This document shows positions 10,728 through 33,047 of a stretch of DNA of 64,000 nucleotides, piece by piece. The notes under the pieces were generated by a model. That model was given only the letters and a program-made list of their open reading frames with translations. It made no database searches and was not told the DNA's origin. The stretch lies in contig CAVYIY010000005.1 in assembly GCA_963768775.1 (NCBI GenBank), positions 159,028 to 223,027 on the forward strand. Reading direction: 5' to 3'. The position numbers were made by a program, and so were the translations under genes. Source of the stretch: Methanomassiliicoccaceae archaeon (GTDB lineage Archaea > Thermoplasmatota > Thermoplasmata > Methanomassiliicoccales > UBA472). The stretch's first letter is position 1. Each line of letters opens with the position of its first letter.

Positions 10728-11340
10728 ATGCAAACAGAGGTATCGAATAGCGTGAGGTCGGATATCCTGAACGTTGGGTATCGGTCGGTAAACTGCTATC
10801 TTCTAATGACAGATAAGCCAAGAATGCTGATCGATGTGGGCTGGCCGGGCGGGATGCCAGAGCTCAAGAGGAGCATGGCCTTGCATGGCAGGCCGGTCAA
10901 GGAGGTTTCCCATGTCCTTATGACCCATTACCACATCGACCATGCTGGCATCGCCCAGGAGCTGAAGGACAAGGGTGCGAAGCTCATCGTCATGGAGAAC
11001 CAGAAGAGTCACCTAGACGACCTCAAGAAGTACCTGCATCCGCCCGAGGTCTTCCATGAGATAAGGAAGGATGGCAACATCCACCTTAGATTCGAAGAAA
11101 GCCGAGCCTTCCTGGAGGGGATGGGAATCCTCGGCGAGATAATTCCAACCCTGGGTCATAGTCCTGACCATGTCACTCTGGTGCTCGATGAGGGCATCGC
11201 CTTCACCGGAGATCTTCCGCCTGAGAACGCCGCGGAGGAAGGCAACGGATGCCTACAGGGACTGGAATAGGCTGCGGCCGATGAAGGTCAAACGGATCTT
11301 CCCGGTGCACGGGAATTACGATTCTATCTTGGGAAACTGA
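10728..11340 (+). pseudogene. MBL-fold metallo-hydrolase with one frameshift near 11243-11250
   Basis: The motif THYHIDHAG (HxHxDH) and LGHSPDH are present. The C-terminal DAYRDWNRLRPMKVKRIFPVHGNYDSILGN continues in another frame to the stop at 11338-11340. Confidence 0.7.
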
Positions 11341-14929: not shown

Positions 14930-15885
14930 ATCGAAACACCCCCATTTCCCCGAAACTTCTAATAAGCAATTGTGAGTGTGAGTCGGAAGACCGAATATAA
15001 TGGCTCGTTTCCTTTTTGTCAATTAATTAGCCAAGAAAGGAAATCTTCATCGCTCAATTGATGTCTGGATTAAGTGATTTAACTATTTGTGCTGCAGCTG
15101 GGACACCTCGCTCAAACGCTAACAAGCAATTGATAGTCAACAGGAGAGGTATCGGTAATTCTCGAAAAAATATTTCGACTTATCGATCGCTTTCATATAC
15201 TGGCATGAAGCGGTACAATTCTTCCCAATTCCACCTCATTGGTCGATAGGAATTGAACATTCATGTCGTATATTCCACATATTTAGAAGGATTAGCCGTT
15301 ATTTCGCCATGAATAACCTGGTCATTTATGAAGTGTTGGAATGTTGGGGATTGTAAGTGCGCAATATTTGCAAGCACCCATTAGTTCTTATATTTGAGAC
15401 GAACAGAATAATGATGGCGAGCCGGGAATCCTCCTTTGCTTATCGTGGTGTGAGAGTTGGAATCAGACAGCCATTATTATGCCCCGGTCCGCCATCCTTC
15501 ATTATTGAACGCACTATGGCCGTTTAAACTGGAACCGGTTAGAAGATGGAAGAAGGTAAGGATAGAAGAAAGAAGATAGGAAGAGGTTTGGAGACATGGC
15601 GAGCATAGCGTTAAACGATTCAGCCAGCAGGTGTTATCGTCGCATTTTTCGGTTGTCAAATCTGTTTGCACCAGGAAATCAAGGTGCGCAAACATATCAC
15701 ACGCCCATCCTAGCCAGTCTACCTTATCCAGCTCCATAACGCACATCCTACTATCCCCGGTCCGTCATCCCTTCCAATCCGTTTCTCGATAATCTCCATA
15801 AGTTACCGCCATTAAGTCGATACCAGAGATTAAGAGTAAAGTTGTCAATGGTGTGAAGCTTGGTTCATTTTATTGAGGGAATGAT

Positions 15886-16977
15886 ATGATCTCTGAACAA
15901 AAGGGTCCGATGAGCGATGATATTGCCGCTAAAAAGAAGTATAACGATGTAATAAGAATCCCATTCGAACTCAATGAAAGTAGCATCCTGGCGATATGCG
16001 GGATGCTCTGCCTTCTGATCTTCTTCTTGGACGTCAGCTTAAGGATCTCGTTCCTCGTCAGCATTCTGTATGTTATTCCAGTGCTGATTTGTATCTGGTC
16101 CCCGAAAAGACGGACCATATATATTGTAGCAGGAGTATCCTCGTTCCTTACAATAATTGCAATACCCTTCAAACCACCTGGAGACATTCTAATCCCTCTT
16201 TTCAATCGGCCACTCTCATTGCTCACCCTTTGGACCGCGGTGATTCTAATTGACCGATTCAACTCCATCCGAAAGAGGTTCGAAGAGAAGTTAAAGAAGT
16301 CCAATGATGACCTCCAGCAATTCGCTTACATCGCCTCGCACGACCTTCAGGAGCCTCTGCGCACGGTCGTCAATTACCTGGCCCTCCTCCAAAGAAAGAA
16401 TATGGATAAGCTGGATCCTAAATCCCAGGAATACATCAATTTCGCCATGGATGGCGGAGAAAGGATGCGCCAATTGATCGATGACCTATTGGAGTATTCA
16501 AGAGTCGATAGCCAGGGGAAAGAGTTCACTCCAGTGAATATGCAAGACGTAATTGATGAAACTCTTGCAATACTTAAATCGCGCATAGAAGAAAGCAATG
16601 TGCAAGTGATCACCGGTCCACTCCCTGTAATCTCTGGAGATGAAACTCAAATGATAAGGGTGATGCAGAATCTGATAGGGAACGCAATCAAATTCCACGG
16701 CCCAGAGCCTCCGAAGATATGCGTTTCAGCGTCGGAAGGCAGGAATGAATGGACCTTCGCGGTCAAGGACAACGGAATCGGTCTGGACATGCAGTATTCA
16801 GACAAGATATTCCAGATGTTCCAACGTTTGCATAATAAGGAAGAATATCCAGGGACAGGTATCGGCCTTGCTGTCACGAAGAAGATCGTTGAACGTCATC
16901 GAGGAAGGATCTGGGTCGAATCGGAAGAAGGCAAGGGAGCGACATTCTTCTTCACTATTCCGATCGGCAATAATTGA
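15886..16977 (+). CDS. Membrane sensor histidine kinase
   Basis: The N-terminal part is hydrophobic. The HisKA H-box is FAYIASHDLQEPLRTV. The HATPase_c region contains NLIGNAIKF and GTGIGLAVTKKIVERHRGRIWVESEEGKGATFFFTIP. Confidence 0.85.
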   Translation: MISEQKGPMSDDIAAKKKYNDVIRIPFELNESSILAICGMLCLLIFFLDVSLRISFLVSILYVIPVLICIWSPKRRTIYIVAGVSSFLTIIAIPFKPPGDILIPLFNRPLSLLTLWTAVILIDRFNSIRKRFEEKLKKSNDDLQQFAYIASHDLQEPLRTVVNYLALLQRKNMDKLDPKSQEYINFAMDGGERMRQLIDDLLEYSRVDSQGKEFTPVNMQDVIDETLAILKSRIEESNVQVITGPLPVISGDETQMIRVMQNLIGNAIKFHGPEPPKICVSASEGRNEWTFAVKDNGIGLDMQYSDKIFQMFQRLHNKEEYPGTGIGLAVTKKIVERHRGRIWVESEEGKGATFFFTIPIGNN

Positions 16978-17415
16978 TAAAGGGAAAGGTGCCAGTTCGG
17001 CTCATCTCTTAGAGACCAAACCTGCCGTCTCGCAACGATATAACGATGATTTCCTCTGATTTCTAAATGTAAATATGAAAAAACAGATTCCGGACACTTC
17101 GGACGAATCGGACCGATTCCCTAGACAGAGATCTAGAATCAAAAAGAATTGAAAGAATTACAACCCTCGTTAATTAGATTGGGCAGGGTAATGATTCTTA
17201 TGAAATGAATGAAACGTGCTCTCGGGCTCAAGAAGAAGAGCTAAAGGGAAACACTATCTGATATTGACCTTCGGGTCTTGTTGCATTTAAAGAAAGTTGA
17301 GTAAGGGGTTTGGGGGGACAATTGGGCATTTCCTGCAATTCATCCAGTATTCTTTCATATCTCAAATTTGAGTGGTGAAGGTAGTTTCATATTTCAGCTC
17401 GGGTTTGCCGTCTTA

Positions 17416-17907
17416 ATGAGGAAAGCGAGCTTCAGCGAGTTCTTCCCTGACCGCTATGGATCAAAGCTCGAGGCGGCGAAGGACATTCCTTGCATCTTCG
17501 AGGTGGTCATGAAAGCTGTCCAGGAGACGATGGGCCTCAGACGCTCGGGTCTGGAGCTTGGCCTTATCGAACTGGAGAGCAGTCATGGATATTTCATCGG
17601 TTGCCTCCACCCCTTTGGCACGAACCTGATAGTAGTGAACAAGTTGCCTCTTAGGCGAGTGAAGGATTCATCGCCCCAGATCTGCAAATCATATTTATTC
17701 CTTGTTCTTCTGCACGAGTACATGCATACGTTTGGCATCTGGGATGAGAAGGAAATACGCGAGGGGGCCCTGGCGATGATTAGACAGCTTTTCGGGGATG
17801 ATCATCCGGCCACGAAACTGGCAGAGGGCATCGAGCAGTTGCTCCCGTTCGTCATCTATCCGACGCAGATGTCGTTGCCCAAGGGAACGAAGATGGAGTC
17901 GGTCTAG
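17416..17907 (+). CDS. Hypothetical protein with an HExxH motif, possibly a zinc metallopeptidase
   Basis: The ATG is at 17416. The LLHEYMHTFG (HExxH) motif is the only functional clue. Confidence 0.4.
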   Translation: MRKASFSEFFPDRYGSKLEAAKDIPCIFEVVMKAVQETMGLRRSGLELGLIELESSHGYFIGCLHPFGTNLIVVNKLPLRRVKDSSPQICKSYLFLVLLHEYMHTFGIWDEKEIREGALAMIRQLFGDDHPATKLAEGIEQLLPFVIYPTQMSLPKGTKMESV

Positions 17908-19913: not shown

Positions 19914-21524
19914 CTAGGCCTGGTACTTGCGCCTGATGGCGGCTCGGACCAGCCCGTAGTGCAGCGGGCTCGGCTTCTGCGGTCTCGACTTGAACTCGGG
20001 GTGGAACTGCGCGGCCATGAAGAAGGGATGCCCTTCCAGCTCCCCGATCTCCATCTTGATCCCGTCCGGGGAGCGTGCCGAGAACTTCCAACCGACCGAT
20101 TCCAGCTTCTCGATGAACTTCGGGTTCACCTCGTAACGGTGGCGATGCCGTTCCATGATCAGGGTCTTGCCGCCGTACAGCTCATGCGCCATCGTGCCCT
20201 CGGTGACCACCGACGGCTGGACTCCAAGGCGCATGGTCCCGCCCTTCCTCTTCACATCGCGCTGCTCCGGCAGGATGTCGATCACCGGGTATTGAGTCTC
20301 CGGGTTGATCTCCGTGCTGTTGGCGCCCTCCATGCCCAGCAAGGCGCGGGCGATGTCGATGGTGGCGATCTGGAAGCCGAGGCAGCAGCCGAGATACGGA
20401 ATGCGGTTCTCCCGGGCGAACCGGGAGGTCATGATCTTGCCCTCTATCCCCCGAGAACCGAAGCCTCCGGGTATGAGGATGCCGTCGATCTTGGCCAGGT
20501 CGGGGGTTATGCCCTTCTCCTGCACCACCTCGCTGTCCACGAACACCATCTCCACCTTGGTCTCGAGCTCCGCCCCAGCGTGGTGGAAAGCCTCCAAATG
20601 GCTTATGTAGGCGTCGGCCAGGTGGGTGTACTTGCCCACGCAGGCGATGCGCACCGTCCTGGTGGGATTGGAGACCCGGTCGAGGAACCTCTTCCATTCT
20701 GTGAGGTCCTGCATCTTCGACTCCAGCCTGAATCGCTTCAGGATGTAGTCGGTCAGGCCCTGCTCCTCCAAGATGATCGGGACTTCATAGATGGACCTGG
20801 CATCCGGGGCGGAAACCACCGCCTCCAGCGGCACGTCGCAGAACAGCGATATCTTGCGCTTGATGCTGTATTCCAATGGCTCCGTAGCTCGGGCCACGAT
20901 AGCATCTGGCTGAATGCCCAATGAGCGCAGCTCCTTCACCGAGTGCTGCGTCGGCTTGGTCTTCTGCTCTCCCACGGTCCCCAATATGGGGACCAAAGTG
21001 GTGTGGACGAACATGCAGTTCTCGCCCTTCCCCAGCTCGGTGTTCATCTGCCTCACCGCTTCCAGGAAGGGCATCGACTCGATGTCACCCACCGTTCCCC
21101 CGAGCTCGACGATGCAAACGTCAGCCCCGGTCGCTTCGGCGACGGTGCGGATCTGGCATTTTATCTCATTGGTAATGTGGGGAATGATCTGTACGGTCTT
21201 GCCCAGATACTCGCCCATCCTCTCCTTCTCGATGACCGTCCGGTATATCTTGCCGGTGGTGATGTTGTGATCGCTGGTGAGATTGATGTCTAGGAATCGT
21301 TCGTAATTGCCCAGGTCGAGGTCCACCTCGCCCCCGTCATCCAGGACGAATACCTCTCCATGCTCGAATGGGTTCATGGTGCCCGCGTCGATGTTCAGGT
21401 ACGGATCCACCTTAATCGCAGTTACCTTCAAACCTCGCGATATGAGTAGCCGCCCTATCGAGGAGGAGGTTATTCCTTTGCCCAAGCCAGATATTACGCC
21501 ACCCGTGACAAAAATATATTTCAT
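19914..21524 (-). CDS. pyrG: CTP synthase
   Basis: The ATG is at 21524 ([24 protein letters not shown]). The glutaminase domain contains [12 protein letters not shown] and LGCCLGFQ. Confidence 0.95.
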
Positions 21525-21571
21525 CGTTTCCACGGGATTGCCAAATCCGTTTGTGCATATTTCAGTCTTTG

Positions 21572-21580
21572 CACGATGGC
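21572..21580. repeat. Left copy of the 9-bp target-site duplication CACGATGGC
   Basis: Identical 9-mer at 28695-28703. Each copy directly abuts a terminal inverted repeat. Confidence 0.7.
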
Positions 21581-21584
21581 GGCT

Positions 21585-21637
21585 TTGCACTCAAAGTCGT
21601 TCTTGCACCTAAAATCATAAGTTTGCACCTAAAGTCT
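21585..21637 (+). repeat. Three phased direct repeats of TTGCAC(C)TAAA(A/G)TC at the left transposon end
   Basis: The copies start at 21585 (TTGCACTCAAAGTCG), 21603 (TTGCACCTAAAATCA) and 21623 (TTGCACCTAAAGTCT). Spacing is 18 and 20 nt. Confidence 0.7.
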
Positions 21638-21640
21638 TGC

Positions 21641-21655
21641 TTAAGTCAGACTTAA
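21641..21655. promoter_or_regulatory. Perfect palindrome TTAAGTC-A-GACTTAA, a putative operator upstream of the wHTH gene
   Basis: 7-bp arms around one central base, about 50 nt upstream of the ATG at 21707. The half-site resembles the AAGTC end of the iteron. Confidence 0.4.
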
Positions 21656-21706
21656 GACAGCAAGATTCAAAAGGGGATGAATACATGACTATTATGGTTG
21701 CAGCCT

Positions 21707-23143
21707 ATGAAGTCGAGTTCGAGTATTACTGCGAATGTTATTTGGCCATCAGCTGGCTTTTCGACTATCAAGAAGATAACCATCGCGCTCGTTAGCGGAA
21801 GGACGGTTCGTTCAGACCTCGTTCATAAGGCGAGTGTTAGCAAAAGTGCAATGAATAATGCTTTACCTATAATGCGAAATCTGCAAATCGTTCAATCAGA
21901 AGGGTACAGAAAAACCTCCCTCAAGTTGACGGAGGATGGGGAAGAACTTGCAACAGCATTGAAGAACAACAACGAAGATGGATTGAATCTCATTGGAGAA
22001 AGATTGCTCAATAATTCCCCAGTCCTGAAATCGGCTAAATCAAGACTCGTTCAGAATCCGCAAATCAATTTGGAAATCCTTGGTCACCAATTGGCCGAGG
22101 AATTTGGAATGAGATGGGACCACTCAGGTACTTATAGAAATGTAGGCCAGCACTCAAAAAGTATTCTTATGAATTTTGGGGCAATCCCACGAACTGGTAT
22201 GAGATCTTCCAATGGAGGGTATATTGTGCCCAATAGGACCACATTGGTCCCATCGACATCAGCTGAAATGATTTTTGATTTCATTAAGAAACTTGACCGA
22301 GAACAGGCAAAGCCAATTGTGGGGAGTCTGGAACCAAGTTCAACAAAGACATATCGGTTAGGGCGATTCAAATCACTTATCGACCTCGACCTTGTCGAAT
22401 CACCATTGGGGGACAAATGTTTTCGCCTAACTGAAAGTGGATTGAGATTGAAGCGAGCAATCCAAAACGGGGAGGAATCACGAGTATTTGCTGAAATTAT
22501 CTTTGAATTTCAGCCCTCCAAGGAGGTAATTCTTATTCTTTCAAATGCTAAACAGACATTCAATTCTACTGAAATAGGCAACAATATCGCTGAATATAAT
22601 GGTGCGAATTGGGGAAAGGAGACAAGCAGACAAGAAGGATTGCGATTCCTTTCTTGGCTTAGAACAGCTGGAATTGCTCAACAAAATCATGAACCAGGCA
22701 AGTATCGAATAACGCTTGCCCCTGTTCTCTTTTCTGTTTCATATGTGTCAAAAGTTGTTCCTCCATTAGAAGTAAAGAAGATCGAAATGCCTGAACCTCC
22801 ATTGCAACTAATTGTGAAAGACCATTTCGTTATGGACGAAAGGGAAATGATTAAAGAATTGGATAGATTCCTCATAAAAGCAGGGGAAATACTCCATACG
22901 AACCCAAATGAAAGTGAAATTGGAGATTATTTCGCCGAAACAGGTAGAATATTAAATGCGATTGTTGAAATTGCTGAGAAAGAAAAGAAACAAGAATGGC
23001 TTGCGATTCATCTTCGAGACCTCACCGAGATCGTTTTAAGATTGAATAATTTGGAAATGCTCGAAGAAATGGTAACTTTCGCGTATCTATGGAAGAAGGT
23101 TTTAAAAGAGAATGATGATTATTATTCGAGAACACCGGGATAG
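21707..23143 (+). CDS. Hypothetical protein with several winged-helix-like DNA-binding modules
   Basis: ORF 21698..23143 with the first ATG at 21707. The segments RSDLVHKASVSKSAMNNALPIMRNLQIVQSEGYRKTSLKLTEDGEELA, RLGRFKSLIDLDLVESPLGDKCFRLTESGLRL and GLRFLSWLRTAGIAQQNHEPGKYRIT look wHTH-like. No family is recognised. Confidence 0.55.
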   Translation: MKSSSSITANVIWPSAGFSTIKKITIALVSGRTVRSDLVHKASVSKSAMNNALPIMRNLQIVQSEGYRKTSLKLTEDGEELATALKNNNEDGLNLIGERLLNNSPVLKSAKSRLVQNPQINLEILGHQLAEEFGMRWDHSGTYRNVGQHSKSILMNFGAIPRTGMRSSNGGYIVPNRTTLVPSTSAEMIFDFIKKLDREQAKPIVGSLEPSSTKTYRLGRFKSLIDLDLVESPLGDKCFRLTESGLRLKRAIQNGEESRVFAEIIFEFQPSKEVILILSNAKQTFNSTEIGNNIAEYNGANWGKETSRQEGLRFLSWLRTAGIAQQNHEPGKYRITLAPVLFSVSYVSKVVPPLEVKKIEMPEPPLQLIVKDHFVMDEREMIKELDRFLIKAGEILHTNPNESEIGDYFAETGRILNAIVEIAEKEKKQEWLAIHLRDLTEIVLRLNNLEMLEEMVTFAYLWKKVLKENDDYYSRTPG

Positions 23144-23208
23144 CGAAGATCGGTATCGCAGCCCTCTCATCGGTAGGCAGTTCGGGGGTTCAAATCCCCC
23201 TCCCGGTA
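23134..23208 (+). tRNA. tRNA-like sequence (central CAT, so Met/Ile2-type?) with a defective anticodon stem; a possible tRNA pseudogene
   Basis: The acceptor ACCGGGA/TCCCGGT, D arm GCGA-AGATCGGTA-TCGC and T arm GGGGG-TTCAAAT-CCCCC all pair perfectly. The anticodon arm GCCCTCTCATCGGTAGGC forms only 3 clean base pairs. Confidence 0.45.
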
Positions 23209-23576
23209 CCTCTTTCCTTCTTTATCCCAGTGTCTCGAACGTCCTTGGAGCTGCCACTTCGAAGTTGCAGCCACGAAGTCGAAAGCTCCCGGACTGTATA
23301 CACTCAGGAACTAATGTGTCTTAAAGGGTTTGCGCTCATTCCTTCTATTGATTCTTAGTCGAAGCTGATATGAATGAATGTTGATGGTGCAATCGATCAT
23401 TATGATGAATTCTACCTTCAAATAAAGGATTATTATGATCTATTGAAACAAAACTGTATTACAATGGCATTACACGAATCAAATCTAAATCACAGTTGTC
23501 GATTAGAAACACGATGAATCGTTCGAACGTCCTTTTAGAGTGTTAACGATAAATAGAAAATCGAGAAGTATGAAAG

Positions 23577-23591
23577 TTGTACCTAAAGTCG
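23577..23591 (+). repeat. Extra iteron copy TTGTACCTAAAGTCG upstream of the small zinc-ribbon gene
   Basis: Matches the TTGCACCTAAAGTC consensus at 13 of 14 positions and lies 62 nt upstream of the ATG at 23653. Confidence 0.4.
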
Positions 23592-23652
23592 GCTGTGGGT
23601 AGTTTCACTGTAATTGGCGATTTGAATAGCATCCTATGACCTTCAGCAGATT

Positions 23653-23802
23653 ATGTGGTTGAAACCAAAGAAGCGAGAAGTTCTAGTCCTGAGAATGGTT
23701 GGCAAATGCCCAGAATGCGGAGCGGCTTTGTGGTCTGGATCGCAGAAATGCGGAAGATGTGGAAAATTGATCGAAAATAGATTTCATTTGGCTGGCAAAT
23801 AA
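23653..23802 (+). CDS. Small zinc-ribbon protein (49 aa)
   Basis: Hand translation gives MWLKPKKREVLVLRMVGKCPECGAALWSGSQKCGRCGKLIENRFHLAGK, with the CPxCG...CGRCG motif. It is below the 60-aa cutoff of the ORF track. Confidence 0.4.
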   Translation: MWLKPKKREVLVLRMVGKCPECGAALWSGSQKCGRCGKLIENRFHLAGK

Positions 23803-24779
23803 GTCTCTATCGTTGGATTGGGGCGAATGCCCTTTCGAATCCTTTCAACCATCGAGTTCAACTCATCCCAGTATGAACAAACACTCATGATCTCTCTGAT
23901 TGCCAATTCATCAATCTCTCCTTTCTCGGTTGAAGGTAGTTGGATTTTGAAGTCCTTTAACTTCTCGTTGAAGCACTTACGGCCATACGAATACCTCCAC
24001 GTTTCACGATTCAGCATATATTGAATGAAGATGAGAGTGGATAGCATAATTGTCTTCTTGGGCAAACAGACGGCGACGTCATCCTTGGCCGCAAAGGTAT
24101 ATGGATGGTATTTCGTGAGAAGAGGCCACGATCCATTGTAGGCGATAGTCAGGCATTGAGAATAGGTCTTATTCTTGGGCACCTCAACGAAGCCAACTAT
24201 CCCATTGTTAATATTTCCGCAAGAAACTAAAGGCGTCTTACCTGGATGCAGCTCAGACGCATTATGGTAATCGCCCGAGTTCAAGTCGAAAATGGATTTT
24301 AGTGAGTGAAATTTGAATCGGCTTATTGATGGAGTAGCAGAGTTATTCTTCCTCTCTGGCAAAATATTGTGAATGTCAGTCAGCCTTATTTTTGAGAATT
24401 GCTCGATTGGAAGCTGAATCGCCTTCAGTCTTGTAGGGGTGAGTTTTCTTCCAAAAGAAAAGCGCCATCTTGAATTAGTAATAATACTGGCAATGAAAAA
24501 TAGCTTTTCAAGTTCGATCTTTTGCTTTGGAATAAGAACGGTGATGTCATCTGGCACAGTCGAAAAATCGACGGTCTGAACGAAGGCATATCCAGCAACT
24601 CTTTCGACCGTTATTGCTGGTGCTTTAAAGCTCGGAGTAGCCTTTACAAAGCCAGTAACTCCATTGTTTTCGGTCGTTGCAGAAATTAGAGGAGTAGGAC
24701 CAGCTTCAAAATCCTCGATATAGCCGCCTTTTCCCTTCTTTGGATAAAAAAGTTCATCAATCGTCGCCATGAAATTCAT
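23784..24779 (-). CDS. Restriction-modification specificity subunit with two TRD-like repeats (BcgI-B-like)
   Basis: 331 aa with an internal duplication: ...PLISATTENNGVTGFV...DDITVLIPKQKIELEKLFFIASIITNSRWRFSFGRKLTPTRLKAIQLPI is repeated as ...PLVSCGNINNGIVGFV...DDVAVCLPKKTIMLSTLIFIQYMLNRETWRYSYGRKCFNEKLKDFKIQLP. The start overlaps the upstream methylase gene by 23 nt. Confidence 0.65.
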   Translation of the reverse strand: MNFMATIDELFYPKKGKGGYIEDFEAGPTPLISATTENNGVTGFVKATPSFKAPAITVERVAGYAFVQTVDFSTVPDDITVLIPKQKIELEKLFFIASIITNSRWRFSFGRKLTPTRLKAIQLPIEQFSKIRLTDIHNILPERKNNSATPSISRFKFHSLKSIFDLNSGDYHNASELHPGKTPLVSCGNINNGIVGFVEVPKNKTYSQCLTIAYNGSWPLLTKYHPYTFAAKDDVAVCLPKKTIMLSTLIFIQYMLNRETWRYSYGRKCFNEKLKDFKIQLPSTEKGEIDELAIREIMSVCSYWDELNSMVERIRKGIRPNPTIETYLPAK

Positions 24780-26613
24780 CTTCCTTTGCGCCTCTGATTA
24801 GGAACGCGACGTTGTCCCTGATAAGACTCTCTGCATCGAGCCTGATCTTCTCGGATGTAACAGGCTCATCGTCGAGATAGGCTTCAGGGCACAATTCAAA
24901 CAGTTCATCCTCGTCATTTATCTCGATTGCCTTCTGCATTTGAGGTATATTTGGAACGCTAATGCTCGGGTCTACCAGATATGATGCCAATATAGGTTTG
25001 AGCGTCTCCAAATCATTTGGTTCGCTTGGATTGGGGAGTCTCTTGCCTTTCTTCAGTTTATACCCATCATGGGCCGCTCGGAGCCATAACACCTTTTGAT
25101 TGCCTTGTGGCACACCTTTTCTGATGAATACTCCTACAGTTATGACCCCCACTCCAGGTTGAAATAATTCTTGCGGAAAAGAAATCACGCATAATAGGCT
25201 ATTCTCTTTTACCAGCCTTTTCCTCCAGCTAAGGTAGCCTCCTTTTTTAATCATGCATGAATAGGGCAGGACTGAAAACAGTAACCCCTCATCTTGCATT
25301 TGTTTCAAAGCCTGCTCTACGAAGAGAAATTCCTTCTTGTCGGTCTTCTTCTTTGGAAATGGCGGATTCATTAAGACCCTGGTAATTGGAGGAACCCGCT
25401 TTTCGGTTTCTTCATTAAGGTATTCAGCTCCGACTACTCCGTTTTTTGAAGACAGATTGAGATATTTGCGGAAACAATTTCCTTCAATGATGTTGTTTTT
25501 GCCATCACCCCTGAAGATCATGTTGACTAACGCAAGAGCCACAATTGTATCCTGTTCTTCGATTCCGTACAAACCGACCTTTCTGAACTCTTGGAAATCT
25601 CGATCATTTGCTTTCTTCTTGACCTCGTCGAAAGCGGCTACCAGGAAGCCTCCAGTTCCACAGGTTGGGTCAAGAACGAGGTCATTGGCGTTGATGTTTG
25701 TGACCTCTGCGGCGAGACGAGTTACGTGGCGAGGCGTAAGGACAATCCCTATCTCCTTTGCCCCATTGCCATATTTCAGGAAGACCTCGTAAAATTTGCC
25801 GAGAACATCCTTTCCCGAACGCATTGCCGAATGGATGTTTAGTCCCAGCAGTTCCTGAGTGGTCTTAACAATTGCCGATTTTAGCTTTATGTGATTATCC
25901 TCACTTGATGGAAGGTCGATATGGATAAAGGGGGAGAATTCGGATTTATTCTCAGCTTTTAGCACAAGGTCTACTCGTTGATTAATTTGGCTAACGAGTT
26001 CTGGTGGACTTAGATTCAAATCGACATCGGGCTTCCGCGTCATGGCTAGAAGGATCGCAGAAATGAACTTCGCCCTTGCATCTTTATGAATGGCGTTTTC
26101 ATGAAGAATTCCATTGATCTCCTCAGCCGTTCTGAGAAAATCTTCTTCAGAAATCTCAATGTCCTTTATGTTGGCATCGTCGTTTTTTAGAACCTGCTCA
26201 ATCTCGGTAGCAGAGAGTAAGGCGGTGACTTCTGAGTTATTCTCAGTAATTATTTCCCAGGATCCATTCACCAAATACCTGCTCGTTGCAATATATCCTT
26301 CTTCATCATTGCCAGCAATGCCAGTGCAAAAATGTGCTTTTATGAATTTGCTATTATTGATGTCATCGCAATATCCTATGGCTTCCTTGATTGCTTTTTC
26401 GAGGAGAACGCGCTTACTTTTAGCTTCTATGACATAGAATTGGTTGTTTGAAATCTCAACGATGTTTTCAGGGACTCCGCCTTTGAGTTGCTCTTTCAGA
26501 TACCTGTTATTATTGCATTCGTTTTGTGTGAATATCTTCCCCTTCCAACCCTTTTTCGACCTCAGTTCCTTAAGGATATGAACGTAAGCATGAACTTCCG
26601 TGACCGAATTCAT
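24757..26613 (-). CDS. N6-adenine DNA methyltransferase fused to an N-terminal PD-(D/E)xK-like nuclease domain (Type IIB/IIG-like RM subunit, BcgI-A-like)
   Basis: 618 aa. MTase motif I is VLDPTCGTGGFLVAAF and motif IV is LMNPPFP. The N-terminal roughly 130 aa contain VPENIVEIS...FYVIEAKSK (E...ExK). No separate restriction endonuclease or HsdR gene is nearby. Confidence 0.75.
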   Translation of the reverse strand: MNSVTEVHAYVHILKELRSKKGWKGKIFTQNECNNNRYLKEQLKGGVPENIVEISNNQFYVIEAKSKRVLLEKAIKEAIGYCDDINNSKFIKAHFCTGIAGNDEEGYIATSRYLVNGSWEIITENNSEVTALLSATEIEQVLKNDDANIKDIEISEEDFLRTAEEINGILHENAIHKDARAKFISAILLAMTRKPDVDLNLSPPELVSQINQRVDLVLKAENKSEFSPFIHIDLPSSEDNHIKLKSAIVKTTQELLGLNIHSAMRSGKDVLGKFYEVFLKYGNGAKEIGIVLTPRHVTRLAAEVTNINANDLVLDPTCGTGGFLVAAFDEVKKKANDRDFQEFRKVGLYGIEEQDTIVALALVNMIFRGDGKNNIIEGNCFRKYLNLSSKNGVVGAEYLNEETEKRVPPITRVLMNPPFPKKKTDKKEFLFVEQALKQMQDEGLLFSVLPYSCMIKKGGYLSWRKRLVKENSLLCVISFPQELFQPGVGVITVGVFIRKGVPQGNQKVLWLRAAHDGYKLKKGKRLPNPSEPNDLETLKPILASYLVDPSISVPNIPQMQKAIEINDEDELFELCPEAYLDDEPVTSEKIRLDAESLIRDNVAFLIRGAKEDEFHGDD

Positions 26614-26765
26614 TTCTTATTCCCACCCTTCTTGATCCAATCACTTAATGCCTCTTCGCCCGCTTCCGACAAGTGGCCTTTCTTCATTCCCAGTCTATGT
26701 GACACTGCATCTCTGAACCCTTCATCCACATCATCGCTGACGACTAGGAGAATTTTTTTAGTCAA
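26610..26765 (-). CDS. Small ribbon-helix-helix-like protein, a putative R-M controller
   Basis: Hand translation gives (L)TKKILLVVSDDVDEGFRDAVSHRLGMKKGHLSEAGEEALSDWIKKGGNKK. The TGA overlaps the methylase ATG (ATGA). There is no ATG, so a TTG start at 26765 is assumed. Confidence 0.4.
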   Translation of the reverse strand: MTKKILLVVSDDVDEGFRDAVSHRLGMKKGHLSEAGEEALSDWIKKGGNKK

Positions 26766-26847
26766 GTAGACCAAATATATATGTGCATATCCAATTATAT
26801 AACTATCTAGTTATGATGATAATGTGATATATGAATATCATCTTACT

Positions 26848-27012
26848 TTAATCAGTTATTGATGACTTGGTTTTGCGTCTTGGACTATCCCAATACGGGC
26901 TTTTACATTTAGGGCAGACGCGCGGCTTAGGCGGTTCGGCAACGATCTGTTTCGGAGCCCATTTGTGCTTGCATCTAAGGCACTCGAATCCAGCCACCAT
27001 GATTCTAGGCAT
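26848..27012 (-). CDS. Small zinc-ribbon protein (54 aa)
   Basis: Hand translation gives MPRIMVAGFECLRCKHKWAPKQIVAEPPKPRVCPKCKSPYWDSPRRKTKSSITD (CxxC...CxxC). It is more plausible than the antisense track ORF 26867..27067. Confidence 0.5.
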   Translation of the reverse strand: MPRIMVAGFECLRCKHKWAPKQIVAEPPKPRVCPKCKSPYWDSPRRKTKSSITD

Positions 27013-27122
27013 GATGAATGAAGGTATGTACTCTATGATATATTATCTTTCGGTTGTCATTCGGTAGCCTGGTAGCAACCTTAATATATACCTAATGAGT
27101 ATATACCTATTAGGTAAGAAAT

Positions 27123-28373
27123 ATGGCACACCTTGAAAAGACAACAAGAGAAGATCGCGCCAAGCTTATCGCGCGTAAAGCAAACTCGATTAATGAAGTT
27201 AAACCAGGCATATTCGCAGTCAAATCGCAAAGCGGAATAGGCGTATATCGAGTCGAGAATAATCGGGGCTGGAAATGCAATTGCCCAGATCATGTTACCA
27301 GGGGAGTCGATTGCAAGCATATCCTTGCGACTAGATATTACCTTGAAGCGCAGCACGAAACGCCGGAAGGTGTCGTTACGGAGAAGATTAGGCTGACCTA
27401 CAATCAGGCTTGGTCAGCTTATAATTCAGCTCAGGAGGAAGAGGTAAGGCTCTTCGACAAGCTCCTGAGCGAATTGGTTGAGGGGATACCGGAGCCAGAA
27501 CAGGTGATGGGCCGTCCTCGATTGCCGCTCAATGAGCAGCTTTTCTGCTCAATCCAGAAAGTCTATTCCCAATTGTCCAGTCGTCGCGCCCATAGCCTCT
27601 TCAAGAACGCCAATGAGAGAGGGCAGATCGGCCATGCGCCCCACTTCAACGCGCCATCCAAGCTGTTCAATCGGCCTGAGATCACGCCAATCCTCCATGA
27701 GCTGATAAGGCTCTCCGCCATGCCAGTTGCCGACATCGAGACGGACTTCGCAATCGATTCGACCGGATTTAGGACAACGACGTTCAATGCATACCACGGA
27801 GAGAAGCACAACGTCAAGAGAAAGCAGAACTGGCTCAAGGCGCATATGTGCTGTGGAGTGAAGACCAACATTGTTACGAGCATTGAGGTAACAAATGAGT
27901 TTGGCGCGGATTCCGTCCAGTTCCAGCCCCTCCTTGCGAAGACGGCTGAGTCGTTCAAGATAAACGAGGTAAGCGCGGATATGGCCTATTCCTCACGCGC
28001 CAATTTGCAGGCCGTTGGCGACCTTGGAGGAGTCGCTTTCATCCCTTTCAAGAGCAACGTGAACGGTAAACCCACTGGTTCGCCTTTGTGGAAGAAGATG
28101 TACCACTTCTTCCAGTACCACAGGGAAGAGTTCGAGGCGCACTACCATAAGCGGAGCAACGTGGAATCCACAAACGCGGCCATTAAGCGGAAGTTTGGGG
28201 AGACGCTGAAATCGAAGAACCTGATTGCTCAAACTAACGAACTATTGGCTAAGATCGTGGCCTATAACCTCACGGTGATAATCCACGAGATGTATGAGAA
28301 TGGGGTGGAGCCGGACTTCCTGCACATACATCCTAATCCGGGCAACGACGCCTTAAGCGCGGATGCATCATAA
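27123..28373 (+). CDS. IS4-family DDE transposase with an N-terminal SWIM zinc finger
   Basis: 416 aa. The SWIM motif CxCx(n)CxH is WKCNCPDHVTRGVDCKH. The DDE context is FAIDSTGF and VSADMAYSS. There is an exact IS4 YREK signature Y-(2)-R-(3)-E-(6)-K in HYHKRSNVESTNAAIKRKFGE. Confidence 0.8.
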   Translation: MAHLEKTTREDRAKLIARKANSINEVKPGIFAVKSQSGIGVYRVENNRGWKCNCPDHVTRGVDCKHILATRYYLEAQHETPEGVVTEKIRLTYNQAWSAYNSAQEEEVRLFDKLLSELVEGIPEPEQVMGRPRLPLNEQLFCSIQKVYSQLSSRRAHSLFKNANERGQIGHAPHFNAPSKLFNRPEITPILHELIRLSAMPVADIETDFAIDSTGFRTTTFNAYHGEKHNVKRKQNWLKAHMCCGVKTNIVTSIEVTNEFGADSVQFQPLLAKTAESFKINEVSADMAYSSRANLQAVGDLGGVAFIPFKSNVNGKPTGSPLWKKMYHFFQYHREEFEAHYHKRSNVESTNAAIKRKFGETLKSKNLIAQTNELLAKIVAYNLTVIIHEMYENGVEPDFLHIHPNPGNDALSADAS

Positions 28374-28394
28374 ATAGGACGAAATAACACAACA

Positions 28395-28556
28395 TTACTT
28401 GGACATCGCGTCTTTCCATTGTTCCATCCATTTCCTATATGCCCATCTATGCAATTTGCATGCATTACGTTTTGGAATGCTGTGCGCATGAGGACATACT
28501 TCGTCGTCGGTGATCTCCAACTCTCCTTTCTTTAAAGATTCCACGAACCATGACAT
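28395..28556 (-). CDS. Small Cys/His-containing protein (53 aa)
   Basis: Hand translation gives MSWFVESLKKGELEITDDEVCPHAHSIPKRNACKLHRWAYRKWMEQWKDAMSK. It lies inside the transposon and is below the ORF-track cutoff. Confidence 0.35.
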   Translation of the reverse strand: MSWFVESLKKGELEITDDEVCPHAHSIPKRNACKLHRWAYRKWMEQWKDAMSK

Positions 28557-28630
28557 CTTTTTTCGCCTTCTTTGTTCAATAGAAGCTTTTGAGGCTTACA
28601 ACAACCTTCCGGGGTGATTCTCAATATCGG

Positions 28631-28665
28631 TTGCACCTAATGTCCATATTCCGCACCTAATGTCC
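28631..28665 (+). repeat. Two phased direct repeats of (TT/CC)GCACCTAATGTCC at the right transposon end
   Basis: The copies are at 28631-28645 and 28651-28665, an exact 13-nt repeat with a 20-nt period. IR-R (28676-28694) carries a related copy in the opposite orientation. Confidence 0.65.
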
Positions 28666-28694
28666 TCGTTCATGGTCACTTTAGATGCAAAGCC

Positions 28695-28703
28695 CACGAT
28701 GGC
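28695..28703. repeat. Right copy of the 9-bp target-site duplication CACGATGGC
   Basis: Identical to 21572-21580. Confidence 0.7.
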
Positions 28704-28897: not shown

Positions 28898-30366
<1,469 letters not shown>

Positions 30367-31086: not shown

Positions 31087-31191
31087 GCGGAGGTGGCCCA
31101 GCCAGGCAAGGCGTTGGATTGCTATCTCGCCCTAGCGGGGCAAACATCCAATGTCCGTGAGGACTCGGGGGTTCAAATCCCCCCCTTCGCG
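31087..31191 (+). tRNA. tRNA-Ser (anticodon GCU) with a 21-nt intron at the canonical 37/38 position
   Basis: The acceptor is GCGGAGG/CCTTCGC. The anticodon stem is TTGGA/TCCAA and the loop is TT-GCT-A. The intron spans 31125-31145. There is a 15-nt variable arm (class II) and the T arm is GGGGG-TTCAAAT-CCCCC. Confidence 0.85.
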
Positions 31192-31195: not shown

Positions 31196-31550
31196 TATTT
31201 CCTATGGAAGCTGGCTCTTTTGGGGTTTTTGGGTGGAAAAGGGCCATTTTTTACGATTGTTCGTCTGTACCAGATAGGGATTTTCTCTGCGATTTCGAAA
31301 TTCGAAGGGAAAGGGTTTGCCGAGGTGGAGGGAGAGCGGAGACGATTAGATAATTGATGCAAATGTTGTTTGAGGCAGAGTGTCAATTAAGAAGAAATAA
31401 TGAGCCCCGCTAGACCTCCCCTATTTAGGCTGCATCTTCGGCGCCCGCTCCAGCAATATCCATCAATTGAGCGATATTACCATCTTCATATAGGGAATAG
31501 TTTCTTAAATCTGCATATCAATCCATTAGTGTTAAGAGAGAGGTGGAGTT

Positions 31551-31982
31551 ATGGTCAAATTAGCTGAATATTCTCATGACTTCAAAGTTAAAAGGAAGGA
31601 AGAAGTATTCGATGGAATCATTCGCTGGCTGAGTACAGAGGGAGCAGAAATCGAGAACTCAAACAAGCCATTACAAATCACTGCGATGCATGGCTCCAGA
31701 AAGACCGTCTCTGTATGGAAGAGGAATGCCAGGAAGAAGCTTGATTTCAGTCTCACCGACACAGCAGAGGGAACTCATGTGCAGGTCGAGGCGCATACTG
31801 GTTCGATGATGTATCTCGATGACGTTGCAACCTGGAAGAAGCAGATATATGTCAACTATGGTTTGCTGTTGGAAGAGATATGGGCAAGTGTGGATGGCGT
31901 TCCGTTTACATATCCTGGGGAAGAAACGACAACTCAACCACCTGAAACGGAGAAGAAATCGAAATGGAAGCTCTTCAAATAA
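31551..31982 (+). CDS. Hypothetical protein (143 aa)
   Basis: Intact ORF with a GGTGGAG 5 nt upstream, in the low-GC insert. No homology is recognised. Confidence 0.45.
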   Translation: MVKLAEYSHDFKVKRKEEVFDGIIRWLSTEGAEIENSNKPLQITAMHGSRKTVSVWKRNARKKLDFSLTDTAEGTHVQVEAHTGSMMYLDDVATWKKQIYVNYGLLLEEIWASVDGVPFTYPGEETTTQPPETEKKSKWKLFK

Positions 31983-32000
31983 ACAACCAGGTGTAATTTA

Positions 32001-32255
32001 ATGGACAGAGAAGAACTGCTTAGGGCCAAAGCCGAGATGTCAAAGAGAGACCGAACGATTGGCAGAGCGAGCATGAGACTGGGAGCGATTATTGCGGTGG
32101 TATCTTTCGCTCTGGTTGTCCTCATTGTCTCGATTAATGGTCCGCTCACAGACAACATTGGCTCAATAATTGCCTATGTCTTGGCATTTGGTGTGGGACT
32201 TGGAGTTCTTATGTTGCTATATGGTCTACTGCAATATCGGTCCAGCAAAGAATGA
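32001..32255 (+). CDS. Hypothetical small membrane protein (84 aa)
   Basis: Two predicted TM helices. It follows the previous ORF by 18 nt. Confidence 0.4.
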   Translation: MDREELLRAKAEMSKRDRTIGRASMRLGAIIAVVSFALVVLIVSINGPLTDNIGSIIAYVLAFGVGLGVLMLLYGLLQYRSSKE

Positions 32256-32317
32256 ACGCATGACCCATTTCTGCCTACACATGGTCTTACTATCGAAGGT
32301 CAGAAGTGTTAGTCATT

Positions 32318-32491
32318 CTATTCAGATTCGATTGTCACCTTGATTTTCAACGGGGTCTTCCCGGCAAATGCTGCCTTTTGAACGTACAGCGTACCAATGA
32401 CTGGGGTCGATGTCGGGTCTTTCACATCTTCCATGAATCTGAACGTGTTCTTAGTGGCCTTTTCAAAAGTCATAGTCAATTCTGTTTTCAT
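32318..32491 (-). CDS. Hypothetical small protein (57 aa)
   Basis: Hand translation gives MKTELTMTFEKATKNTFRFMEDVKDPTSTPVIGTLYVQKAAFAGKTPLKIKVTIESE. A GGAGG lies 8 nt upstream of the ATG. It is preferred over the antisense track ORF 32306..32542. Confidence 0.45.
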   Translation of the reverse strand: MKTELTMTFEKATKNTFRFMEDVKDPTSTPVIGTLYVQKAAFAGKTPLKIKVTIESE

Positions 32492-33047
32492 GCGAATGCC
32501 TCCGAGATAGTATGTGACCCTCCATTCTTACTATTTTCCTAATTGCGAGGTGGTGGAGCCTAGAGAACCCATCCGAGCCATCCGAGCCGTCCAGAACTCG
32601 CTTACTTTCTTAAACATCATGAGACATCGAGGTTCAAATTACACCCCCCGCACCTTAATCAGAGGCAGTATTTGTTTCTCAAAAATGTCACCGCCAAGCG
32701 TTAGCATGATTCAACTTTTTATTAATCCTTGTCCTGCCCCCCCAGTGTTCTGGCTCGGGGGATCTATTTGAGGTGGGTACGCTTTTTAGAATAGTCTCAT
32801 TAGTTTTAACTCCCTGGTATCACCATCCTTCACGGATAACTATGAGCACAATGAAAAAGAAAAAAAAGGGAGCAGATGATCCGCCCGTGAACAACAATCG
32901 GTCAGATCATAAGAGTTCGAGAACCCCATCCAACATTACAGGCGCGGACAACAAATCAAACCAGAAAAAAGGATCGAAGGGCAAGAATTAATAAACCATT
33001 GAAAGAAACTGGAAGGCTTAATGGCCCAGCGAAATGAGACGGACTCT

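Follow-up and report, generated by a model that had tools for sequence, protein, structure and literature searches.

Repeated 14-bp motifs as probable recognition sites at the asymmetric ends of an archaeal IS903-like cargo transposon

The insertion and its repeated sites

The window is the whole stretch of DNA analysed here: 64,000 bp of contig CAVYIY010000005.1 from a Methanomassiliicoccaceae archaeon (positions 159,028 to 223,027, forward strand). It contains a 14-bp repeat, TTGCACCTAAWGTC, copies of which frame a discrete insertion of 7114 bp (21581-28694) that encodes a transposase and cargo proteins. The repeats are quite probably the cis-acting recognition sites of this insertion, a cargo transposon of a mostly archaeal IS5/IS903-like clade. 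Positions are those of the window. +, forward strand; −, reverse strand. Sites are named L1 to L3 at the left end and R1 to R3 at the right end; designations with three digits (L042, L044) refer to other loci. The features of the ends are as follows.

21572-21580, no strand: target-site duplication, left copy, CACGATGGC, 9 bp
21581-21598, +: left terminal inverted repeat, GGCTTTGCACTCAAAGTC; holds site L1
21585-21598, +: site L1, TTGCACTCAAAGTC; part of the left terminal inverted repeat
21603-21616, +: site L2, subterminal, TTGCACCTAAAATC; 12-mer core from position 24 of the left terminus
21623-21636, +: site L3, subterminal, TTGCACCTAAAGTC; core from position 44 of the left terminus
23577-23590, +: solo internal copy, TTGTACCTAAAGTC; 13 of 14 bases match
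28631-28644, +: site R3, subterminal, TTGCACCTAATGTC; core at positions 52-63 counted from the right terminus, opposite in orientation to R1
28651-28664, +: site R2, subterminal, CCGCACCTAATGTC; core at positions 32-43 counted from the right terminus, opposite in orientation to R1
28677-28690, −: site R1, TTGCATCTAAAGTG; inside the right terminal inverted repeat
28677-28694, −: right terminal inverted repeat, reverse complement GGCTTTGCATCTAAAGTG; holds site R1
28695-28703, no strand: target-site duplication, right copy, CACGATGGC, identical 9-mer directly outside the terminus

The inverted termini are imperfect, 17-18 bp long, and both begin with GGCTTTGCA; they read GGCTTTGCACTCAAAGT (21581-21597) and GGCTTTGCATCTAAAGT (reverse complement of 28678-28694). 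The 14-mer repeat corresponds to positions 5-18 of the terminal inverted repeat. Only the true termini have the GGCT tip; the subterminal sites lack it. The G+C content is about 0.42 inside the element versus about 0.60 in the flanks. According to its termini, its 9-bp duplication and this drop in G+C content, 21581-28694 is a bona fide transposon. It lies between pyrG and an archaeal 16S rRNA gene (28898-30366, −): it is upstream of pyrG, 56 bp from the ATG, and downstream of the 16S rRNA gene, 203 bp from the 3′ end. The right-end junction was also found in an independent assembly (L044). The reconstructed empty target site, TTGCACGATGGCCAGAAGAGTA, has no match among metagenome contigs. The search for further copies of the element with the right-end 20-mer gave two matches, which share nothing else with the element and are due to chance.

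The window was scanned for TTGCACCTAAWGTC at up to two mismatches, and 100 dinucleotide shuffles were used as the null. Seven matches were found (shuffles: mean 0.53, maximum 3; none of the 100 reached seven). All seven are inside 21581-28694, and the remaining 57 kb of the window contain none. A first-pass annotation, made from the sequence alone, had called for such a check of motif density; on the scale of the window, its expectation is borne out. It had also described three direct copies at the left (starting at 21585, 21603 and 21623, with start-to-start spacings of 18 and 20 nt), two direct copies at the right with a period of exactly 20 nt (R3 to R2) plus an inverted copy in the right terminus, and one further copy at 23577. 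All of these are present at these positions.

In a fixed register, the cores of the end sites are found at L+6, L+24 and L+44 (all +) and at R-51 and R-31 (+) and R-5 (−). The centre-to-centre distances are 18 and 20 bp at the left end, 26 and 20 bp at the right end.

Layout and co-variation of the sites in related elements

One genome per species was scanned for relatives, which gave 39 related loci; look-ups of close homologues added more. The hosts belong to Methanosarcinales, Methanocellaceae, Methanomassiliicoccales, Micrarchaeota, Aenigmatarchaeota, Altiarchaeota, Bathyarchaeia and Woesearchaeota; one Acidobacteria genome is also among the hosts of related loci. The transposases of these relatives are 40-72% identical to the protein of the window. 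Where both ends are on the contig, the elements are 3.0-10.4 kb long and have GGCTTTG-type tips, 9-bp duplications and the end layout of the window. All complete relatives carry cargo.

The survey of ends was seeded with each terminal copy and includes 22 left ends and 32 right ends. A copy in the same orientation was found at position 24 in 20 of the 22 left ends, and at position 44-45 in 17. In right ends, the terminal copy is at position 6, and inverted copies are found at 32 and/or 52 in 28 of the 32. In one subclade, the left-end copies are at 35 and 55. None of the 22 left and 32 right ends shows the converse arrangement. The first-pass annotation had remarked that the orientations of the two ends are not the mirror image of each other; this is real and is the rule for the whole family. 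Judged from the ends surveyed, the non-mirror layout is a rigid hallmark of the family. The same layout of sites flanks elements with quite different cargo.

The sequence of the sites was compared for 60 sites by Hamming distance within and between elements, with 5000 permutations of the labels. The mean distance is 2.59 within elements versus 5.05 between elements; none of the 5000 permutations was as good. TGC is kept in 59-60 of the 60 sites, and only a TGC...AAAGT-like frame is conserved family-wide. The site sequences of some elements are given below.

Window and L041: TGCACCTAAAGT
L002: TGCACGTAAAGT
L012 and L015: TGCTAATAAAGT
L016: TGCACTTTTAAT
L017: TGCTCCTTTTTA
L022 and L023: TGCCCGAAAAGT

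The six sites therefore co-vary element by element, which, at the level of sequence, is the signature of co-evolution with a putative reader encoded by the element.

Related ends are often nested or abut at exactly 9 bp (L004 560-700 and 3126-3200; L013 3159-3620 and 10530-12304; L019 4790-4956). L004 and L013 hold intact nested ends, that of L004 being a left end. A miniature element of about 77 bp, composed of end sites alone (L003, about 11220-11296), abuts the right end of a full element. Such nested and abutting ends suggest insertion into or beside existing copies, and a route for the capture of cargo between two left ends. Another miniature element (L042, 4105-4170) is 66 bp long, consists of L1, L2 and R1, and has its own perfect 9-bp duplication, TTATCCGCG; it keeps the left spacing and the R2-R1 spacing. 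Since it has its own duplication, the ends suffice in cis. The direct orientation of the left and right subterminal sites eases deletion between them, and the L042 miniature looks like the product of such a deletion.

These observations bear on whether only the terminal repeats matter, the subterminal copies being functionless by-products of nested or adjacent miniature insertions or of recombination between ends. Ends that are nested or abut one another are indeed seen (L004, L003, L013, L019), a 66-bp miniature element exists, and the solo copy at 23577 resembles such a relic. However, relics are not expected at constant positions (24/44 and 32/52) across dozens of elements with transposases of only 40-70% identity, nor are they expected to keep pace with the drifting sequence of the terminal sites. 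By-products of this type are thus a very unlikely origin of the subterminal copies.

Candidate reader of the sites and comparison with known systems

The element carries at least eight open reading frames (ORFs). Its genes and internal features are listed below. aa, amino acids.

21640-21656, no strand: perfect palindrome, 17 bp, CTTAAGTCAGACTTAAG (CTTAAGTC-A-GACTTAAG); between L3 and the next gene
21707-23143, +: cargo protein with a weak winged helix-turn-helix (wHTH) match, 478 aa; HTH_45, E = 3.7e-4, below the Pfam cut-off
23134-23208, +: tRNA-like gene overlapping the stop of the wHTH ORF; ARAGORN 'tRNA-???', 4-nt anticodon 'catc'
23653-23802, +: CxxC...CxxC ORF, 49 aa, downstream of the solo copy; the 'zinc-ribbon ORF' of the first-pass annotation
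23784-24779, −: restriction-modification specificity subunit; Methylase_S, E = 3.6e-13; PADLOC Specificity_II, E = 3e-23
24757-26613, −: Type IIG-like restriction enzyme-methyltransferase; N6_Mtase, E = 8.6e-33; PADLOC REase_MTase_IIG, E = 3e-42
26610-26774, −: small ribbon-helix-helix (RHH)-like ORF; RHH_6, E = 0.0026, weak
26848-27012, −: small zinc-ribbon protein; Zn_ribbon_8, E = 7e-5; divergent from the transposase
27013-27122, no strand: divergent promoter region; TATA-like boxes and the repeat TATATACCTAATGAG / TATATACCTATTAGG, including the pair at 27090-27115
27123-28373, +: transposase, 416 aa; N-terminus with SWIM, helical region, IS5/IS903-type DDE domain; reads toward the right end

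The catalytic domain of the transposase matches DDE_Tnp_1 (PF01609; E = 2.7e-20, residues 208-383), as in the IS903/IS5 family. Its best NCBIfam model is NF033579 (123.9 bits, under the model cut-off of 140), which is also the best model for the transposase of IS903B from a Klebsiella plasmid (356 bits). Compared by tblastn with IS903B and ISRhba5, it gives weak matches of 25-27% identity (E = 6e-4 to 3e-13). The terminus of IS903B is GGCTTTGTTGAATAAATC; its first seven bases (GGCTTTG) are identical to those of the window element. The GGC-type termini and the 9-bp target duplication of the IS903 group are found in the window element and its relatives. According to the catalytic domain, the tips and the length of the duplication, all of them sequence features, the element is classed as an IS903-like member of the IS5 family.

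It is not a simple insertion sequence of about 1 kb with a single gene. IS903B and ISRhba5 are about 1.05 kb long, have one gene and a single site per terminus, and have neither SWIM nor subterminal sites. In contrast, the window element is 7.1 kb long with cargo, and has three sites at each of two asymmetric ends; the N-terminus of its transposase is longer by about 130 residues, among them a SWIM zinc finger.

At least 5,892 significant homologues of the transposase were found, labelled 'transposase' or 'IS5 family transposase'. Most are metagenomic, and those with an organism label are mostly archaeal; the nearest organism-labelled relatives are from Methanomassiliicoccales. SWIM (PF04434) is annotated on many of them. 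The AlphaFold2 (AF2) model has a folded domain (residues 8-76), a linker, helices (93-205) and an RNase-H-like catalytic core (208-392). Foldseek matches of this model in the PDB are generic DDE/RNase-H folds (best: ISCth4, E = 2e-4, TM 0.29) and therefore do not help to identify the domain that reads DNA.

An all-against-all comparison of ORFs was made for 14 elements. The transposase is the sole protein family common to all of them. The gene divergent from it encodes a small DNA-binding-type protein almost everywhere, but the family of this protein differs.

Zinc ribbon upstream of the transposase: window, L006, L012, L013, L017, L020, L022, L023 and L042 (also L024, a near-duplicate of L023)
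AbrB-like protein upstream of the transposase: L002, L004, L007 and L041
RHH protein upstream of the transposase: L009 and L015

The end sites are assigned to the transposase because it is the only family common to all elements, and it is very probably, by this reasoning from gene content, their docking protein. The first-pass annotation had proposed that a single protein reads the repeats, either the transposase or the wHTH protein. One reader, likely the transposase, is retained from this proposal. The wHTH protein is not: tblastn gave no match to it in any of the 39 related loci, and a search of 5.8 billion proteins returned one homologue (32% identity), so that in sequence databases it appears as a near-orphan.

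The sites could instead be read by a protein other than the transposase, either the small zinc-ribbon, RHH or AbrB-like neighbour acting as an accessory DNA-binding subunit, like the Myb-like protein of Harbinger elements, or a host factor. Nearly every element has, upstream of the transposase and divergent from it, a small DNA-binding-type gene, many elements share its zinc-ribbon version, and a transposase lacking SWIM (L020) still has sites next to it and is accompanied by a zinc-ribbon gene. Such a reader is nevertheless unlikely. The upstream proteins belong to unrelated families (zinc ribbon, AbrB-like, RHH, wHTH), none being common to all elements, whereas the layout and the TGC...AAAGT frame are constant. 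A host factor does not explain the element-specific co-variation of the six sites across host phyla. The distinct promoter palindrome that each element has of its own is a more natural target for the small proteins.

It was also considered whether the repeats are operators or iterons, either bound by the wHTH cargo protein to regulate internal genes or belonging to a plasmid-like origin. The left array is upstream of the wHTH gene and followed by the palindrome, one copy is upstream of a small ORF, and the spacing of about two helical turns is iteron-like. This explanation is extremely improbable: no related locus has the wHTH protein, which is nearly unique in a large database; arrays of the same layout flank unrelated cargo; none of the ORFs of the element matched a Rep-type family; the arrays go with cleaved termini that are flanked by target duplications; and the left palindrome is absent from the relatives. 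Plasmid iterons are repeats beside a Rep gene, and the arrays studied here are at transposon termini. The resemblance to multi-site ends of Tn7 or Mu, also proposed by the first-pass annotation, is kept; that to plasmid iterons is dropped, as there is no Rep gene and the sites are at fixed distances from cleaved termini flanked by duplications.

The following mechanism is proposed for the transposase acting on these sites. The DDE transposase of the element would bind all six sites. The terminal protomers would cut and join DNA at the GGCT tips, while subterminal sites would bind transposase without being cut, their protomers being architectural. In IS903, the inner part of the inverted repeat binds the transposase, whereas catalysis requires the tip; the repeat at positions 5-18 of the terminus presumably corresponds to this transposase-binding part. 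The architectural role is proposed because the subterminal sites lack the GGCT tip and because of this division between binding and catalysis in IS903. The different spacing at each end would give two different nucleoprotein arms, and an active complex would be formed only from one left and one right end, as in Tn7 and Mu. R2 and R3 point in the same direction as L1 to L3, so that all subterminal sites run along the transposase gene; more speculatively, newly made transposase could be loaded in cis on the adjacent right end.

A few elaborate transposons (Tn7, Mu, Tn402-like) are known to have ends that are asymmetric and carry several sites. The ends of Tn7 carry TnsB sites, three spaced ones at the left and four close-packed ones at the right; they are functionally asymmetric and one end of each kind is required. 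The window element likewise has several sites per end and different left and right ends, its binding being predicted. Tn7 sites all have the same orientation relative to their own terminus and differ only in spacing, whereas the right subterminal sites of the window element are flipped. The target duplication is 5 bp in Tn7 versus 9 bp here, and the transposase is of the IS5 type, not TnsB or MuA; profile searches found no homologue of TnsA, TnsB or TnsC in any ORF of the element. Mu has three MuA sites per end (L1-L3, R1-R3), of which only the terminal ones are at cleavage points, as proposed here. Its R3 site is inverted relative to its neighbours, a precedent for a non-mirror orientation. 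Mu differs in its transposase family and in the length of its duplication (5 bp versus 9 bp); the window element has no enhancer, its sites are closely and invariantly spaced (centres 18-26 bp apart), and neither MuA/MuB nor phage genes were found among its ORFs.

The PIF/Harbinger elements of eukaryotes have an IS5-related catalytic domain and a second small DNA-binding gene, and in Harbinger subterminal repeated motifs are bound to recruit the transposase; they differ in their 3-bp (TWA) duplication and Myb/SANT partner, the small neighbour in the window element being variable in family and an unlikely end binder. Mutator-like elements and others with SWIM-bearing transposases likewise join a SWIM zinc finger to a DDE enzyme, and share the 9-bp duplications as well as binding sites in the subterminal region; they differ in that the catalytic domain of the window element is of the IS4/IS5 type (PF01609), not MULE/IS256, and in that its SWIM is N-terminal.

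Several points weigh against the assignment of the sites to the transposase and against the role given to their layout. The reader is designated by elimination, the role of the asymmetry is likewise inferred, and the function of the flipped right sites is predicted. SWIM is the obvious candidate for the DNA-reading domain, but the L020 transposase (316 aa) lacks it and yet has left sites at 6, 24 and 44, along with a zinc-ribbon gene. The L042 miniature has no separate R2/R3 pair, so that mobilisation in trans would not strictly depend on all six sites. Shared descent may explain a part of the conservation of the geometry; the site sequences themselves have diverged freely.

SWIM was tried as the reader of the sites and this claim was dropped, the correlation being imperfect (sites are kept in L020). 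The same N-terminal SWIM module was found on IS6-like DDE transposases of Methanoperedens and Methanotrichaceae (L033, 8956-10125; L035, 8980-9765), adjoined by a small divergent RHH or AbrB-type gene and by promoter palindromes. Its presence on both IS5- and IS6-like transposases indicates a shuffled module rather than a family marker.

The IS5/IS903 lineage is the textbook example of the minimal insertion sequence, and to our knowledge multi-site asymmetric ends have not been described for it. In the window element, an IS903-like core has been turned into a cargo transposon with a Tn7/Mu-style end architecture. Full-text literature searches gave no published description of the clade or of its ends; the clade may already be curated in ISfinder or TnCentral. 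A broader proposal is made tentatively: the elements may constitute an undescribed, phylum-spanning clade of archaeal cargo transposons, with an IS903-like core and a modular SWIM, a new three-site end plan, polarity as a mechanistic device, and a major role as vehicles of restriction-modification. If so, the flipped right pair could be, for example, a device for cis-loading of nascent transposase and for obligatory left-right pairing, and the clade would be a major carrier of restriction-modification systems between archaea. The geometry (6/24/44 versus 6/32/52) and the co-variation of the sites provide a ready system for studying end discrimination and higher-order assembly by a simple DDE transposase. 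The layout can also serve as a signature by which such elements, cargo included, are delimited in archaeal genomes, whose mobile elements are poorly annotated.

Cargo, internal motifs and neighbouring features

Restriction-modification genes are found in seven of the family elements examined, including the window element, and most of the elements examined have a restriction-modification system as their cargo. The types of cargo are as follows.

Type IIG/IIB: window and L007
Type IIG: L016 and L021
Type III: L023
C5 methyltransferase: L017
N4/N6 methyltransferases and Mrr-like domain: L041
Other cargo: protease in L002; transporter genes in L022

The restriction-modification pair of the window element is 57% identical to one that adjoins a related transposase in L007 (Micrarchaeota). 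It fits Type IIG/IIB, with a fused nuclease-methyltransferase and a separate specificity subunit, the nuclease motif being identified by eye only. The 49-aa CxxC ORF has no family match.

An ORF of 36 codons (21686-21795, +), in a different frame from the wHTH ORF and overlapping its start, has a good ribosome-binding site, AGGGGAT, 7 nt before its ATG. The ATG of the wHTH ORF at 21707 has no comparable ribosome-binding site and is a predicted start only. The tRNA-like gene scores 46 bits with the Rfam tRNA model, in the sensitive search only. Its acceptor, D and T arms are perfect, its anticodon arm is aberrant, and its G+C content is about 60% within an element of 42%. It may represent a fragment captured from the host, a pseudogene or a suppressor-type tRNA of an unusual kind.

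The first-pass annotation had placed copies of the repeat upstream of internal genes, as a regulatory network. The copy at 23577 is genuine, its match of 13 of 14 bases being too good for chance in 7 kb by our estimate, but internal copies are not conserved in relatives and the network is not supported. Only a faint trace of a preceding site tail is found around this copy, and a second, decayed array of sites was rejected on these grounds. The most economical reading of the sequence is that the copy is probably a relic of a former left end; this would account for the presence of the wHTH and tRNA-like segment within the element.

The palindrome reported before the wHTH gene is real and slightly longer than proposed (17 bp at 21640-21656, instead of 21641-21655). 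It is absent from the left ends of relatives, and this stretch folds somewhat better than shuffles (z = -2.4). It is probably a promoter or operator feature of the cargo, specific to this element. The half-site CTTAAGTC bears a likeness, perhaps without meaning, to CTAAAGTC, the 3′ half of the repeat.

The ACCTAAT/ATTAGGT pair is present before the transposase ATG (27123), at 27090-27096 and 27109-27115, as had been proposed; it is not a copy of the end repeat, with which it shares 6-7 bases. In relatives, a different palindrome is found in each element between the upstream gene and the transposase. The pair was considered as a seventh site and rejected, since the palindromes found there in relatives are unrelated and the SWIM-bearing IS6-like elements show the same promoter arrangement. 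It is better read as a promoter or operator of the transposase with small proteins as regulators, and the zinc-ribbon protein (26848-27012) is probably a regulator of this promoter.

A hairpin of RNA or single-stranded DNA at the right end, with R2 pairing with R1, was also rejected: compared with shuffles, the transposase-sense strand shows no gain in folding (z = -0.5). The complementarity of R1 and R2 results from their being inverted copies of one site.

The target DNA bordering the left end (21567-21575) reads TCTTTGCAC, similar to GCTTTGCAC of the element itself. This likeness may be due to chance or may hint at a preference for end-like targets. pyrG (19914-21524, −) has the insertion near its likely promoter. 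No 23S gene follows the 16S rRNA gene; downstream of the latter come the transposon and, beyond it, pyrG, and the rRNA genes are apparently unlinked. A 105-nt match to the Rfam tRNA model (31087-31191, +; 42.8 bits), missed by ARAGORN, is upstream of and divergent from the 16S gene; it is probably an intron-containing archaeal tRNA. Two other stretches of low G+C content (0.41-0.47 versus about 0.6), at 15000-17500 and 31500-33000, may be other acquired islands.

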